Shown here piece after piece: positions 16,801 to 22,812 of a stretch of DNA of 64,000 bases. The translations under genes were made by a program, and so were the position numbers. The stretch is from a virus. Its lineage: Duplodnaviria; Caudoviricetes. The stretch spans positions 32,001-96,000 of the IMG/VR virus record IMGVR_UViG_3300025723_000017; one strand, 5' to 3'. Position 1 is the first letter of the stretch. Each line of letters opens with the position of its first letter. The notes under the pieces are model-generated. The model ran no database searches. It saw only the letters and a program-made list of their open reading frames with translations, and had not been told where the DNA came from.

Positions 16801-17628
16801 ATGAAAAAAATACTATTACTTTTGACATTATTGCTTACAAACACAGTGGCTATGGCCCAACTGTCTACATCTGCCGTGCCTCTTCCGCCAGATATCGCTG
16901 CAATTAAAAAACGAAATGTTTTAGTTGTAGCAATGACTAAGCAAGATTCCCCTCCCTTTTACAGCGGTGATGCAGAACATCTACAGGGATTAGATGTTGA
17001 TATTGCCAAAAGCATAGCACATATATTAAATGTACCTGTTGAATTTCGTCGAGATGCAGCTAGTTTTGCCGATGTTGCTGAACAAGTACGAGATGGTCGT
17101 GCCGACATAGCTGTCAGTAAATTATCTATTACCCCGCCAAGATTACAAACATTAAGATTTAGTGTTCCTTATCTACGTCTTAAACAGGCTATGATAGTTA
17201 ATCGCTTATGGTTAAGCAAAAATTTAGACGGCAGAGAACCTTATGAAGCAATAAGAAATTTTAATGGTCGTTTGAGTTTTATCAAAAACAGCAGCTATGA
17301 AACATTTGCAAAAATTAATTTTCCCAATGCCGAGTACAACTCCGAAGTAAATTGGGGGAAAATTGTAGAAGATGTAATGTCTGGACGTAGTGCTGGTGCA
17401 TATCGAGATGAGTTTGAAATGAAAAAAATCAGTTTCGAAAAACCAGATGCAGCACTTAGTACTAAAGTAATCACTATAAGCGATGCTGTCGATGATATTG
17501 CAGTAGCAGTTAATTACCAATCGCCGCAATTACTGGCTATAATTGACTATGTTATTACTAATCAATATAGCAACATTAATGTTAAAAAATTAATGGATCG
17601 TTATAAATCAGAAATTTCAAAGAAATAA
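16801..17628 (+). CDS. periplasmic amino-acid-binding protein (SBP family 3)
   Basis: Signal peptide; 'PPF','GLDVDIA','GRADIAVS.LSIT..R....FS.PY'. Confidence 0.9.
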   Translation: MKKILLLLTLLLTNTVAMAQLSTSAVPLPPDIAAIKKRNVLVVAMTKQDSPPFYSGDAEHLQGLDVDIAKSIAHILNVPVEFRRDAASFADVAEQVRDGRADIAVSKLSITPPRLQTLRFSVPYLRLKQAMIVNRLWLSKNLDGREPYEAIRNFNGRLSFIKNSSYETFAKINFPNAEYNSEVNWGKIVEDVMSGRSAGAYRDEFEMKKISFEKPDAALSTKVITISDAVDDIAVAVNYQSPQLLAIIDYVITNQYSNINVKKLMDRYKSEISKK

Positions 17629-17643
17629 TCGGGATAAATCATA

Positions 17644-18936
17644 ATGTCATATTTAAAAAGTTTTTTAACGAGTCCATGGACCATATTAGGTTCTATTATA
17701 TTAGGGGTACTGACGGGAATTTATACTCCTGAGTTTGCAGTAAATTTTGAACCTGTTGGCGGTATCTATATTAGCTTATTAAAAGTTGTTGTATTGCCAT
17801 TCTTATTTGCTACTATTATGGTAGGTGTAATTAATCTACTGCAAAAAGAAGGCAGTCAGACTATGATTAAGCGTATCATTTTGGGATTCCTAGCAAGTAT
17901 GTTTCTTTCCTCGCTGATAGGAGTGGGTACAGTGGTTATTACAGGAAGCGAAATGACCACTGAAAAGAAAATACAATTGGGAGCATTGGTTAATAATAAA
18001 GATCAATCTTCGGACATGAATATTACATTGCACGAACCTATGCCTGTAACTGAAAAAGTTAATCCAATGGCAGTAGCCGATAAATTTATTCCTGAAAATA
18101 TTTTTGCCACATTGGATCGCGGAGAAAGTTTAAAGATTGTTATATTTTGTTTAATATTTGGTATTGCATTAGGCAGTATCAAATCCCCAGGACAGCGTAT
18201 TATAGTGGATATATTCCAAAGTGTACAACTAGCTAGTATCAGTATTTTCAAATTCTTAAACTATGGATTACCATTTGCTCTATTGGCTATGATTAGCGCA
18301 CAAGTAGCCAAAGTAGGCGTAGGTATATTTGGCACAATGATAGAATTTATCTATCAGCAGTTTATTGGCGGCATGTTAATCGTTATTGTAGGAACACTAG
18401 TAATTTGGGTAAGAGCTGGTGGCAGTATTATGAATGTAATAAGAGAAACCAAAGAAACGTTGATTGTTGCAGTAAGCTCACGCAGTAGTTTGGCATGTAT
18501 TCCTTATGCACAAGAAGCACTGTCTAGATTACAATTTGACAAATCTGGAGTTGAACTTACGGTTCCATTAAGTTTTACTGTTAATCGAGTTGGTAGTGTA
18601 TTGTATTATGCTATTGCGACTGTTTTCATTGCCAATATATATGATACTCCAATGACAATTGGAACCTTAATGGTGGTATTATTTGGCAGTATATTAGCTG
18701 GATTAGCCAGTGCTGGTACTACTGGTATACTAACAGTGGCTACTGTGGCTGTTGTTTGCGATTTATTAAAATTGCCGAGCGAGGCAGTGCTAGTACTATT
18801 GATAGCCGTTGACCCATTGATGGATATGATTCGTACTGCAAGTCATGTACATGGTAATGTTGCAGTGACTGCATTTGTATGTGATAAGGAAAAACAAGAT
18901 GAGCGAAATCAAACAATTCCTACTCAATCTACTTGA
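17644..18936 (+). CDS. dicarboxylate/amino acid:cation symporter (DAACS/GltP family)
   Basis: Multi-TM; 'LLKVVVLP','FIPENIF','SSRSS','DPLMDMIRT'. Confidence 0.9.
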   Translation: MSYLKSFLTSPWTILGSIILGVLTGIYTPEFAVNFEPVGGIYISLLKVVVLPFLFATIMVGVINLLQKEGSQTMIKRIILGFLASMFLSSLIGVGTVVITGSEMTTEKKIQLGALVNNKDQSSDMNITLHEPMPVTEKVNPMAVADKFIPENIFATLDRGESLKIVIFCLIFGIALGSIKSPGQRIIVDIFQSVQLASISIFKFLNYGLPFALLAMISAQVAKVGVGIFGTMIEFIYQQFIGGMLIVIVGTLVIWVRAGGSIMNVIRETKETLIVAVSSRSSLACIPYAQEALSRLQFDKSGVELTVPLSFTVNRVGSVLYYAIATVFIANIYDTPMTIGTLMVVLFGSILAGLASAGTTGILTVATVAVVCDLLKLPSEAVLVLLIAVDPLMDMIRTASHVHGNVAVTAFVCDKEKQDERNQTIPTQST

Positions 18937-19507
18937 ATGGATAGGACATAGTCCTTTTAGATTATTTACAGTAATATTATTGTGTTTCTTAACCTTTATT
19001 GGGTGGGTCGGATATACCGAAAAAGATAAATTCATGGAAAGCTATCGCGCCCAACAGGCATTGCCGCACATGAATGGTAAGTATGAAGAAGCGTCTAATT
19101 TTATAATCAAGAATAGTCAAGCAGAGTTAATTGCTATTTACGAAGTTAACACACTATTAAACACACGCAAGTTGATATATTTTACCACACGTAGTGGTGG
19201 GCAGGACACCACTAGGTATGGATCAGATGTTGGACTACTGACAAAAGATTATGACAATAATAATGATGTCATTTCCATGATGTCAGGTAAAGTTCCTTGT
19301 CAAACTTATGAACGTCCGCAAAGTTTTATGGGATTCGTGTATGTAGAGCATGGAGTAAAGTATATGTGCAGAATCAGTGTACCGACAGAACCTGGCACAT
19401 TCATAGGACAAATTTCAGTAGGTTGGAAAGAAATTCCCAGTAAACATGATATTGAAGTTGGACAAACTGTAATGTCAGTCGCCAGCGGTATATTGTATAA
19501 AAAATGA
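18899..19507 (+). CDS. single-TM protein with periplasmic domain (T4 holin T-like topology)
   Basis: SD TAAGGA; amphipathic N-terminus, one TM helix, ~160-aa domain with two Cys. Confidence 0.4.
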   Translation: MSEIKQFLLNLLEWIGHSPFRLFTVILLCFLTFIGWVGYTEKDKFMESYRAQQALPHMNGKYEEASNFIIKNSQAELIAIYEVNTLLNTRKLIYFTTRSGGQDTTRYGSDVGLLTKDYDNNNDVISMMSGKVPCQTYERPQSFMGFVYVEHGVKYMCRISVPTEPGTFIGQISVGWKEIPSKHDIEVGQTVMSVASGILYKK

Positions 19508-20190
19508 AACGGCTAGGCGTATTGGGTGGGATGGGACCAGCGGCTAGTGCAGAATTTCTTGTAAGATTGACTGAACAAACTCCAGCAGGATGTGATCAGG
19601 AACATATTCCTGTTGTGGTATGGAGTGATCCAACTGTGCCAGATCGCAGCACTAGTTTGATTAATCAAGATGATCAGCCTTGGCCTAAACTCTGTCAGGG
19701 TATGCTAGGATTAAAAGCGGCCGAATGTGATCATATAGTAATTCCCTGTAACACAGCACATTTTTGGTATGATCGAATGATGGAATTTGGTATACCGATT
19801 ACACATATTGTAGATAGTGTAGCTGATGAATTAAAGTCTCAAAATATAAAAGGTACCATTGGTATATTAGGAACTCGTGCCACCATGCGGTTGGGTCTGT
19901 ATGATCAAAGACTCACCGCAATGGGATGGGATTGTATAACTCCCACTGTAGAAGAAATAGAAAACTATGTGCAGCCTGGTATAGATTTAATTAAAGCTAA
20001 TCAATTCGAAATAGCTCATGGATTGTTTGTTACAGTTATCGAATCTTTAATTAATCGAGGGGCATCAGCAATAATTTTAGGCTGCACTGAAATTCCATTG
20101 GTTGTTAAAGAAACACAATATCATAGTATTAGTTTAATAAATAGCATTGACAGTTTAGTTAAATCGACTATTAATAAATTCAAAGGATAA
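19504..20190 (+). CDS. aspartate/amino-acid racemase
   Basis: GGMGPAAS, PDR, IPCNTAH, LGCTEIP with both catalytic Cys. Confidence 0.93.
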   Translation: MKRLGVLGGMGPAASAEFLVRLTEQTPAGCDQEHIPVVVWSDPTVPDRSTSLINQDDQPWPKLCQGMLGLKAAECDHIVIPCNTAHFWYDRMMEFGIPITHIVDSVADELKSQNIKGTIGILGTRATMRLGLYDQRLTAMGWDCITPTVEEIENYVQPGIDLIKANQFEIAHGLFVTVIESLINRGASAIILGCTEIPLVVKETQYHSISLINSIDSLVKSTINKFKG

Positions 20191-20193
20191 ATT

Positions 20194-20391
20194 ATGTTGA
20201 CATTTGTAAAATCATTAGTTATACTAGCAGTATTAGTAGGCACATACCATGGTATGTCATGGGCAATTGACAAAAAAGCCGATGAAAAAGCATTATCTAT
20301 GATAATGACTGAATATCAAACAAGTGCTCGCGAAGATGCAAGAGATCAGGCAATGAAAGCAATCGTAGATTCATATGTAGCTAAAAAATAA
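20194..20391 (+). CDS. small membrane-anchored protein
   Basis: SD AAGGA, N-terminal hydrophobic helix. Confidence 0.65.
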   Translation: MLTFVKSLVILAVLVGTYHGMSWAIDKKADEKALSMIMTEYQTSAREDARDQAMKAIVDSYVAKK

Positions 20392-21833
20392 TGGCCTATT
20401 CAGATAAAGTTTTAGATCATTATGAAAATCCTCGCAATGTGGGTTCATTTGCCAAAGACGATGCTGATGTTGGCACAGGCATGGTAGGAGCTCCTGCGTG
20501 TGGAGATGTAATGAAGTTACAGATAAAGGTATCAGATGGCGTTATTACAGATGCAAAGTTTAAGACCTACGGATGTTTAACTAGTAATACCCCTGTTAAT
20601 ACTCCAACATGCGTTAAAAAAATCAAAGATTTAAATATCGGAGATGAGGTACTGGCTTGGGATGGCAATCGCATTGTTAATCAAAAAATAAGAGATATAA
20701 TCAAACATTCAGTTGATATCAGTGATTTGTTGGTAGTTTCATTCCAACGAGAAACAAGTAGAAAAAATATCAATCCCGGCACCTTTTCGTTGATTTGTAC
20801 CAAAGAACACATATTTTGGAATGCCGATAATAATCCTGTAGAAGCACAACAACTACAGGTGGGGCAAGAATTATATGAAATAACCGAACATGAGTTAAGA
20901 ATTCTTACCAACAATAGACATCGAACAGAAATTAAACAGAAAAATAGCGCAAGAATGAAAAAATGGAACACCGAATTTGATCATTCTGTATTGCCACAGA
21001 ATCAACCCGGATATGTATGTAAGAACCCAGAAGCTAAAAAGCAACGCTCCAGTGCTGCTTCAATTAAAAACTGGCAAGATCCTAGTTATATTGAAAAGTG
21101 GCAACAAGGAATGGCACAACGAGATTGGTCTAAACCTACTAGTATTGAAAAAAAATATATTGATTTATTTGAAGAAAATAATGTAGCGGCAAGATGGAGT
21201 GCTGGAACAATATGGATTCAAACCACATCAGGCCCCGCAAGTCCGGATTTTATTGTTCCCGGCAAGAAAAAATGTATAGAAGTTTATACAAAGAAAATGC
21301 CAAAGTTTATGCAAGATAGATCAGAAGAATCGGATTATGTCCAAAAAAGAAGTCAACAACTTGCAACAGCAGGATACGATTCATTATTTTTGTCAGTAGA
21401 AGAAATTGAACAGGCACTGCCTAAGGTACAGAATTTTATACATAATGGCATGAAAATTATCGATATTTCTCCAATCACACATCATAATCAACTACGAGGA
21501 TGTGAGCGTGATGACAAAAATGTTGTAGTATATGATTTAAAATTAGAGGATGGTGCCCATGTATTTTTTACAAATAGAGTCGGCTCACACAACTGCGGAT
21601 CAGCAATCGCAAGTAGTTCTTTGGTCACTGAATGGGTCAAAGGAAAATCTCTCGAAGCTGCTGGATGTATTAGAAATAGCGACATTGCCCAAGAACTGGC
21701 ACTTCCACCAGTCAAAATCCACTGTTCAATCCTTGCCGAAGATGCAATTAAAGCAGCAATAGCTGATTATAGAAACAAACATGAAACTACCAATAGTTCG
21801 ATGGCCAGATCCAGTACTACTGACACCATGTAA
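20391..21833 (+). CDS. iscU: Fe-S scaffold IscU interrupted by an intein
   Basis: MAYSDKVLDHYENPRN, APACGD, FKTYG|CGSAIASSS, LPPVKIHC. Confidence 0.95.
   Translation: MAYSDKVLDHYENPRNVGSFAKDDADVGTGMVGAPACGDVMKLQIKVSDGVITDAKFKTYGCLTSNTPVNTPTCVKKIKDLNIGDEVLAWDGNRIVNQKIRDIIKHSVDISDLLVVSFQRETSRKNINPGTFSLICTKEHIFWNADNNPVEAQQLQVGQELYEITEHELRILTNNRHRTEIKQKNSARMKKWNTEFDHSVLPQNQPGYVCKNPEAKKQRSSAASIKNWQDPSYIEKWQQGMAQRDWSKPTSIEKKYIDLFEENNVAARWSAGTIWIQTTSGPASPDFIVPGKKKCIEVYTKKMPKFMQDRSEESDYVQKRSQQLATAGYDSLFLSVEEIEQALPKVQNFIHNGMKIIDISPITHHNQLRGCERDDKNVVVYDLKLEDGAHVFFTNRVGSHNCGSAIASSSLVTEWVKGKSLEAAGCIRNSDIAQELALPPVKIHCSILAEDAIKAAIADYRNKHETTNSSMARSSTTDTM
20574..21593 (+). mobile_element. 340-aa intein with Vsr/DUF559-like endonuclease domain
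   Basis: Starts CL, block B CTKEH, block F VYDL, ends SHN before Cys; internal 'PTSIE','PDF','IEV'. Confidence 0.93.
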
Positions 21834-22275
21834 CACTTGGTTCTTTGACACGTTGACGGAACCTAATATAGAACAAGATCTCATCGATACATTGTTAGGT
21901 GAAAGTGCATTGGGACTAGCAGCAAATCAAGTGGGCATTCCTTATCGAGTATTGGCTATGAATGTACAAGCAGGTGAGTTTGCTGGACAACAGATAGTCA
22001 TGTATAACCCCGTTATTGATTCTGTCTCGACCGATCTATGGGAGCATAGCGAGGGTTGTTTGAGTTTTCCCGGAGTATGGTTATCTATCTCTCGTCCTAA
22101 TTCCGTTGATGCCAGTTGGCAAGACCAGGCGGGGATATCACATTCATCAACCTTTACGGGAATGGATGCCCGATGTTTCCTACATGAAATGGAACATTTA
22201 GATGGGCATGTATTCAAAGAACATGTAAGTGATCTGAAATTTACTCGAGCATTAACAAAAGCGAGGAAGAAATAA
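21781..22275 (+). CDS. def: peptide deformylase
   Basis: GLAANQVG, EGCLS, HEMEH. Confidence 0.95.
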   Translation: MKLPIVRWPDPVLLTPCNTWFFDTLTEPNIEQDLIDTLLGESALGLAANQVGIPYRVLAMNVQAGEFAGQQIVMYNPVIDSVSTDLWEHSEGCLSFPGVWLSISRPNSVDASWQDQAGISHSSTFTGMDARCFLHEMEHLDGHVFKEHVSDLKFTRALTKARKK

Positions 22276-22502
22276 TGGGATTAGGCCCATCGGTTTGTCA
22301 GCATTGCCAGGTGATTGCTGAATACGAGCACAATGATATCGCACCCTTTCATCGCACTTGGTGTAAATACTGTGGTGAGACAGATATAACAGATTATTCA
22401 GGCTTGAATGATGAGCGTTGGGAAATGCTGGAAGATAATAGACGCCGACTTGAACGATTTCATAACTTTGTAAAAGGTATAGACAATGATAACAATAACT
22501 GA
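22275..22502 (+). CDS. small zinc-ribbon protein
   Basis: Two CxxC motifs. Confidence 0.6.
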   Translation: MGLGPSVCQHCQVIAEYEHNDIAPFHRTWCKYCGETDITDYSGLNDERWEMLEDNRRRLERFHNFVKGIDNDNNN

Positions 22503-22812
22503 AACAGCAGCAAAAAAAATCGTAGCTAACATAGCCAAGCGTGGGGCAGGTATTGGAATTCATGTTGGTGTAAAGACTACAGGATGCTCGGGACTGGCCT
22601 ATGTATTAGAATACTTGGATCATGCACCTGTTACTAGAGATTGGTTCCGTTATGAAAATGCCGGGGCTACGGTTTGGATTGCAGGAAGAGATCACGTATA
22701 CTTAGATGGATTAGAAATTGACTATGTACGTCGAGGACTCAACGAAGGCTTTGAGTTCCGGAATCCTCGGGAAAAGGCTCGCTGCGGATGTGGTGAATCG
22801 TTTACAATCTAA
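22486..22812 (+). CDS. iscA: Fe-S carrier IscA
   Basis: TTGCSGLAY, CGCGESF. Confidence 0.95.
   Translation: MITITETAAKKIVANIAKRGAGIGIHVGVKTTGCSGLAYVLEYLDHAPVTRDWFRYENAGATVWIAGRDHVYLDGLEIDYVRRGLNEGFEFRNPREKARCGCGESFTI

Follow-up and report, generated by a model that had tools for sequence, protein, structure and literature searches.

In a large tailed phage, the iscU gene is interrupted by a 340-residue insert that is very probably a genuine class-1 intein, placed directly before the cluster-ligand cysteine Cys63 and carrying, in frame, a predicted Vsr-like homing endonuclease. Splicing itself we infer from the conserved catalytic residues and the predicted fold. The gene lies in a 64,000-nucleotide stretch of DNA (here called the window) corresponding to bases 32001-96000 of a 154-kb IMG/VR virus record with a CheckV completeness of 45%. 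The genes of the window belong to the part of a large tailed phage genome that serves replication and nucleotide metabolism, with helicases, a DnaB-like helicase, a ligase, and NrdA/NrdB. Within this region, iscU is set amid auxiliary metabolic genes (window 16801-20190 and 21781-22812). Upstream are genes for a family-3 solute-binding protein, a sodium:dicarboxylate symporter, a single-pass membrane protein, and an Asp/Glu racemase, while peptide deformylase and IscA genes are downstream. The gene order iscU-(pdf)-iscA-exonuclease-tail recurs in ∼70 IMG/VR loci.

The interrupted gene is a plus-strand open reading frame (ORF) at 20391-21833 that encodes a 480-aa protein, an IscU with a 340-aa insert. 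Its parts, together with the neighboring iscA gene, are as follows (intein residues are numbered from the first residue of the insert).

20391 to 20573, plus strand: IscU N-extein, aa 1-61, with ligands Cys37 and Asp39; ends in FKTYG, with Gly at position -1; TIGR01999/NifU_N matched at residues 2-65.
20574 to 20879, plus strand: predicted N-terminal Hint lobe of the intein, intein aa 1-102, with Cys1 and block B T76xxH79 (protein T137, H140); assigned by AlphaFold2 and Foldseek.
20880 to 21128, plus strand: helical linker, intein aa 103-185, with a W-x-D-P-x-Y-x-E-K-W motif common to free-standing relatives; helices in the models.
21129 to 21443, plus strand: predicted Vsr-like (EDxHD-related) nuclease core, intein aa 186-290, with E192, P224-D225-F226, K232/K233, E236, Y238, and D248-R249 (E253, D286, K293/294, E297, Y299, and D309-R310 in protein numbering); assigned by VIA-align, Foldseek, and profile comparison.
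21444 to 21593, plus strand: predicted C-terminal Hint lobe of the intein, intein aa 291-340, with block F VYDL (D382) and block G ending in GSHN (His400, Asn401).
21594 to 21833, plus strand: IscU C-extein, aa 402-480 plus stop, with +1 Cys402 equivalent to Cys63 and His444-Cys445 equivalent to the E. coli His105-Cys106 ligand pair.
22486 to 22812, plus strand: IscA/HesB-type Fe-S carrier gene (Pfam Fe-S_biosyn, 3e-14), a conserved partner of iscU in this phage group, outside the intein.

Both junctions are sharply defined. On the N-terminal side (FKTYG/CLTSNTP, where the slash marks the junction), residues 1 to 61 end in FKTYG and residue 62 (nt 20574) opens CLTSNTP. On the C-terminal side (GSHN/CGSAIASSS), residues 399 to 401 are SHN, ending at nt 21593, and residue 402 opens CGSAIASSS. 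The class-1 intein thus spans 20574-21593, and joining the exteins (61 + 79 residues) gives a 140-aa IscU. The exteins of the ORF are matched by TIGR01999 (IscU; 202.8 bits against a cutoff of 192.4) and by Pfam NifU_N (2e-47), in each case as two stretches flanking the insert. When the joined exteins were aligned with the intein-less 123-aa IscU of phage C48C1, the junction region aligned with zero gaps. Alignment to E. coli IscU chains (2L4X and 3LVL) equates the +1 cysteine, Cys402, with Cys63, and the IscU ligand set of Cys37, Asp39, Cys63 (C402), and His105-Cys106 (H444-C445) is complete in the window protein. A first-pass annotation of this DNA had placed an intein at exactly these coordinates, at the ligand Cys63, and had predicted a restored 140-aa IscU; coordinates, junctions, and product were all borne out. 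The 16-aa C-terminal tail of IscU overlaps the start of the deformylase gene (21781).

The same insert was found in at least 148 protein clusters in a search of 5.8 billion proteins, in every case within IscU, at identities from 100% down to 62%. Conservation was counted over 113 full-length cluster representatives (62-100% identity). Cys1 (C62), T137, H140, D382, H400, N401, and the +1 residue C402 are invariant in 113/113 of them, and the IscU ligands, C37 and D39 among them, are kept in 112-113/113, as is G61. With no variation in any splicing residue and at least 148 clusters showing the arrangement, the pattern is not a product of chance. Inteins at the same site also occur in more distant IscU proteins (P0122, P0128, and P0129), where identity falls as low as 32%. 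The contigs that carry the insert reach 353 kb, some of them exceeding 300 kb, and the element is common in metagenomic contigs rather than rare. Among 50,697 deposited phage genomes, a megablast search with 15 kb around the gene returned no match, and tblastn returned intein-less iscU only, which leaves the element without a cultured relative among them.

Pfam Hint models match the intein only below their cutoffs; thus, the assignment is carried by fold evidence together with the catalytic residues. An AlphaFold2 model of the intein (pLDDT 88) contains two Hint lobes (residues 1-102 and 291-340), for which the best Foldseek matches are the solved inteins gp41-1 (6RIZ/6QAZ), MchDnaB-1, Msm DnaB, TvoVMA, and RecA, with a probability of 1.00. 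A phmmer search of the intein against PDB sequences gave chance matches alone; the fold was instead assigned with AlphaFold2 and VIA-align together with a profile of the family. The contrary reading, that the insert does not splice or that the gene is dead and iscU a pseudogene, is highly improbable. It could draw on the related allele of locus L008 (L008:4001-5434), which has an in-frame TGA in its C-extein, but the window gene has an open frame of 480 codons and none of its catalytic residues varies among the relatives; exteins and intein are both under purifying selection, and the arrangement is found in the clusters counted above. The TGA of L008 replaces the Trp codon of VTEW, the remainder of that gene being intact, and is either a nonsense mutation or a sequencing error.

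Because Hint domains swamped Foldseek searches with the whole intein, the nuclease domain was modeled on its own. The resulting AlphaFold2 model (pLDDT 89.6) shows intein residues 186-290 as an alpha-beta-beta-beta-alpha-beta core. The best VIA-align match among 48,161 chains was 3R3P, the catalytic domain of I-Bth0305I (Z 10.9, rmsd 2.8, 92/98 residues), followed by the DUF559-like 3HRL (Z 9.5) and E. coli Vsr (1CW0, Z 8.9). Foldseek also ranked 3R3P first for the core. A profile built from the nuclease core and 37 free-standing relatives matched 3R3P at an E value of 5.9e-6, with GKKxCIEV of the family aligned with GKKLAIEV. These results uphold the first-pass description of the endonuclease as Vsr/DUF559-like and not LAGLIDADG. 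A LAGLIDADG assignment of the central domain was rejected because no such family appeared in Pfam/NCBIfam scans and the fold is Vsr-like; an HNH assignment was excluded by the same scans and by the structural alignment. The free-standing relatives (∼200-330 aa) carry NUMOD3 repeats, a typical feature of phage homing endonucleases, before the same core (down to E 8e-14) and show weak DUF559/Vsr matches. The intein linker aligns with the segment downstream of the NUMOD3 repeats in these homologues, with no Pfam NUMOD3 match for the linker itself. From this alignment and the models, the helical linker (intein aa 103-185) is probably the DNA-binding module of the endonuclease.

Residue conservation in the core indicates both kinship with the EDxHD family and a departure from it. 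A set comprising E253, P285-D286-F287, K293/K294, E297, Y299, and D309-R310 is invariant in 112-113/113 representatives; R320 is conserved as well, and the E, PDF, K, and E of the set are also invariant in the 37 free-standing relatives. The metal-binding Asp of EDxHD enzymes (Vsr D51, I-Bth D196) corresponds to D286 in PDF, and the Glu at the position of Vsr Phe62 corresponds to E297 in IEV, both invariant. The presumed general base, a His (Vsr H69, I-Bth H213), has no counterpart in the intein, as IEVNGVYWH of I-Bth0305I aligns with IEVYTKKMP, and at the position of the second EDxHD Asp (Vsr D97, I-Bth D222) the aligned residue is variable (Q/N/T/K), with no conserved acid. With the His and the second Asp missing, the chemistry of the intein nuclease is not transferable from the characterized I-Bth0305I. 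The invariant D309-R310 may substitute for the missing residues. By sequence and predicted fold, the nuclease is a relative of the EDxHD family whose membership is partial. Nei-Gojobori estimates from eight DNA sequences gave dN/dS of ∼0.09-0.15 across all parts of the intein, with the lowest dN and a dN/dS of ∼0.09 in the nuclease core; dS is saturated, so these ratios are rough.

Mobility was addressed through the distribution of the intein among related loci. Among the best 80 IMG/VR loci, seven carry the intein and ∼71 lack it, nearly all in the iscU-(pdf)-iscA-exonuclease-tail synteny. A tree of the extein-only IscU (128 columns) is poorly resolved and does not force multiple gains; the flanking genes were used instead. 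On the exonuclease-plus-IscA tree (343 columns), the five loci with the intein require a minimum of three changes across branches with good support, and forcing them into a single clade costs 102.7 log-likelihood units (AU p 4.2e-5). Here, the intein-bearing locus L004 is sister to the intein-less L037 with support of 100/99. By its flanks and exteins the window is nearest to L008 (exonuclease, 88%; tail, 92%; exteins, 88%), whereas its intein is nearest to those of L003 and L004 (83-85%) and has an identity of just 69-74% with the L008 intein. A derivative with the nuclease cleanly deleted is present in locus L084 (2312-3163), where a 283-aa IscU retains the same intein as a 155-aa mini-intein. 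This locus is on contig JANZYY010000012.1 of a metagenome-assembled genome (MAG) labeled Fischerella sp.; because its neighbors are iscA, an exonuclease, and a tail protein, we regard the contig as phage DNA binned into a cyanobacterial MAG. Such a nuclease-less intein is what a homing cycle is expected to yield at its decay stage. Given the patchy distribution, the discordance between intein and flanks, and the nuclease-less derivative, the intein probably still moves between co-infecting related phages. Ordinary mosaic recombination around iscU, without endonuclease action, could yield part of the discordance.

Homing had been proposed in the first-pass annotation for both phage and host iscU alleles. 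The phage half of that proposal is supported by the patchy distribution and the conflict between intein and flank similarities. The host half is not: a scan of 185,579 prokaryotic species genomes (one genome per species), which reaches close relatives only, gave two loci, both binned into MAGs, namely, the phage-like contig of L084 and L083, a 2.1-kb contig without context. Among close relatives in these genomes, we see no sign that the intein lineage has settled in cellular iscU.

Two further features of the alleles were recorded. At the +1 Cys codon (window 21594-21596; loci L003-L082), TGT is used in 6/7 intein-bearing alleles and TGC in the window, while TGC is used in 55/71 empty alleles; these counts ignore relatedness, and the bias may be a trace of co-conversion. 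In L005 and L006 (4001-4087), a 29-aa fragment of the IscU N-terminus type is situated ∼750 nt upstream of the complete intein-bearing iscU and may be a remnant of duplication or recombination.

In the mechanism that we propose, with the splicing steps taken over from the established intein pathway, translation would yield a 480-aa precursor without a cluster site, in which 340 residues part Cys63 from Cys37 and Asp39. Cys1 would undergo an N-S acyl shift, the thiol of the +1 Cys (later a cluster ligand) would attack the thioester, and Asn401 would cyclize, releasing the 140-aa IscU and a free 340-aa intein. Either the free intein or the precursor would then act as a site-specific DNase on the intein-less iscU of co-infecting related phages. 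The predicted target is the coding sequence of the invariant FKTYG/CGSAIASS; in the 71 empty alleles, the first and second codon positions of the stretch encoding DA(K/R)FKTYG/CGSAIASS are fixed. Repair from the intein-bearing copy would spread the element. We infer splicing, DNA cleavage, and the cleavage target alike from sequences and models. Since many close relatives with the same synteny lack the intein, it is dispensable for phage IscU function, and the best reading is that of a selfish passenger rather than of a regulator that the phage needs.

An alternative account of the nuclease domain holds that it no longer cuts and has been kept as a structural or DNA-binding module, the intein passing mostly by vertical descent and being now and then precisely lost or transferred through general recombination. 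The missing His general base and second Asp of EDxHD enzymes would fit this account, as would the nuclease-less derivatives with intact splice sites (L084 and, in the proteins described below, P0133 and P0134) and the compatibility of the extein tree, taken alone, with a single gain. These points are outweighed in our view, and we consider a dead nuclease quite unlikely. E253, D286, K293/294, E297, Y299, D309, and R310 are invariant across the 113 representatives; the E, PDF, K, and E remain invariant in the 37 free-standing relatives; and the core has a dN/dS of ∼0.09, rough as that ratio is. Intein and flank similarities are also discordant, and monophyly of the intein-bearing loci is rejected on the flank tree.

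The same combination of Hint domain and Vsr-like nuclease, at 22-30% identity over the full intein, is present in other metagenomic proteins. By far the commonest other hosts are QueE-type radical SAM enzymes (P0139, P0141, P0146, P0152, P0155, P0163, P0165-P0167, P0174, P0177, P0186, P0197, P0208, P0221, P0235, P0242, and P0244), in which the insertion falls between CxxxCxx and CDT, which makes the third Cys of the 4Fe-4S CxxxCxxC motif the +1 residue. Further sister inteins occur in NrdD (P0144) and in an RfbH-like aminotransferase (P0147). These QueE, NrdD, and RfbH-like sister inteins share the architecture of the IscU intein but differ from it in host protein and target site; we found no published description of them. 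Some IscU alleles (P0112, P0133, P0134, and P0189) contain a second intein, a mini-intein of ∼150 aa inserted before the ligand Cys37 (GAPA/C...HN/CGDVM). In these double-intein proteins, the Cys63-site intein is full length in P0112 and nuclease-less in P0133 and P0134. The exteins of P0133 and P0134 are mitochondrial ISCU-like, with an N-terminal extension and, in P0133, a PPVKLHCSML motif; P0134 matches human and yeast ISCU with slightly higher scores than it does bacterial IscU. Judging from these sequences, P0133 and P0134 may come from a eukaryote or a giant virus. That inteins recur at cluster cysteines is striking, yet it is expected of Cys-dependent homing inteins, as such elements need a +1 nucleophile and an invariant DNA target.

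This recurrence bears on a further reading, raised as a possibility in the first-pass annotation, in which the intein is a conditional-splicing switch. Cys1, the +1 Cys, and possibly Cys37, His444, and Cys445 would bind Zn or Fe or form a disulfide, and mature IscU would be released under certain redox or metal states only. Inhibition by Zn or by disulfides is known for some inteins of the Cys1/Cys+1 type, and the intein of mycobacterial SufB has reportedly been studied as stress sensitive. In the IscU precursor, the +1 nucleophile doubles as a metal ligand, Cys1 and the +1 Cys adjoin a metal site, and none of the remaining ligands is missing; constraint on the intein is as strong as that on IscU, a tight conservation that is also compatible with a recruited function. 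Sister inteins at the third Cys of the QueE CxxxCxxC motif and the second intein at Cys37 of other IscU alleles would likewise suit a switch. Against it, many close relatives of the same synteny have no intein, a conserved Cys in an invariant motif is an ideal landing site for any Cys-dependent homing intein, and we found no sequence feature specific to sensing. That phage IscU splices in response to the redox or metal state inside the infected cell, and that the same intein lineage does likewise at the QueE cluster Cys, is a reading that we hold to be unlikely, although such gating would be compatible with mobility. If it were true, the phage would free active scaffold only at times favorable to Fe-S assembly. 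The reading as a mobile, selfish intein remains the one that we prefer.

Several known systems resemble parts of this element. I-Bth0305I is an EDxHD homing endonuclease (PDB 3R3P; Taylor et al. 2011, PMC3239194). It shares with the IscU intein the fold (Z 10.9), sequence homology (E 5.9e-6), the Asp (D196/D286), and the Glu of the IEV strand, as well as an N-terminal helical part that in the intein is probably DNA binding, a phage-borne location, and an association with inteins or introns. Both the EDxHD Asp and the Glu that stands invariant where Vsr has Phe62 are described in PMC2677866 and PMC3239194. Unlike I-Bth0305I, the IscU intein is without equivalents of His213 and Asp222 and has the signature E...PDF...KKxIEVY...DRS...R. 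Vsr-like endonucleases have been described as separate ORFs between the halves of split inteins, with an in-frame fusion drawn as the hypothetical step IIa/IIIa (Dassa et al. 2009, PMC2677866). A 2025 preprint on actinophage inteins has Vsr-like endonucleases only in antisense orientation and states that other intein-associated cases are unknown. In published cases, the Vsr-like nuclease is a separate ORF in a split intein, a group I intron enzyme, a free-standing gene, or an antisense gene in actinophage inteins, whereas in the IscU intein the nuclease is fused in frame within a contiguous intein. Such an in-frame Vsr-like nuclease in an intein has apparently not been described in print.

The splicing domain also has close counterparts. 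gp41-1 and the other "fractured gene" inteins provide the best structural match and come from uncultivated phages with Vsr-like endonucleases nearby, but gp41-1 is a naturally split mini-intein in a helicase, whereas the IscU intein is contiguous and has its nuclease in frame. The Mycobacterium tuberculosis SufB (Pps1) intein is likewise of class 1, with Cys1 and Cys+1, and interrupts an Fe-S cluster assembly protein, although that host protein belongs to the SUF system and is not the IscU scaffold. We take the SufB intein to have a LAGLIDADG-type endonuclease region, to reside on a bacterial chromosome, and not to be placed at a scaffold cluster-ligand Cys. It serves as the reference case for the question of whether splicing responds to stress; the kinetics of SufB splicing are treated in PMC8891592. 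The first-pass annotation had named no earlier example in IscU, in keeping with our searches: no published IscU intein was found in the full-text literature on inteins with IscU, NifU, or iron-sulfur scaffold, and NCBIfam release 20 holds intein "exception" models for RtcB, RecA, and the Rv2578c radical SAM protein and none for an intein-containing IscU.

Taken at the strengths given above, these results add IscU to the proteins that host inteins, in some alleles at both N-terminal ligand cysteines. They also point to a natural and widespread Vsr-like homing endonuclease inside a contiguous intein, the architecture predicted by Dassa et al. (2009). The His-less nuclease would represent a new branch of a homing endonuclease family with very few characterized members. 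With a metal ligand as its splice-junction nucleophile, the 480-aa precursor offers a compact test case for the regulation of inteins at cofactor sites. For the biology of the phages, the intein chiefly signals that large uncultivated phages with Fe-S assembly genes often co-infect and exchange genes.
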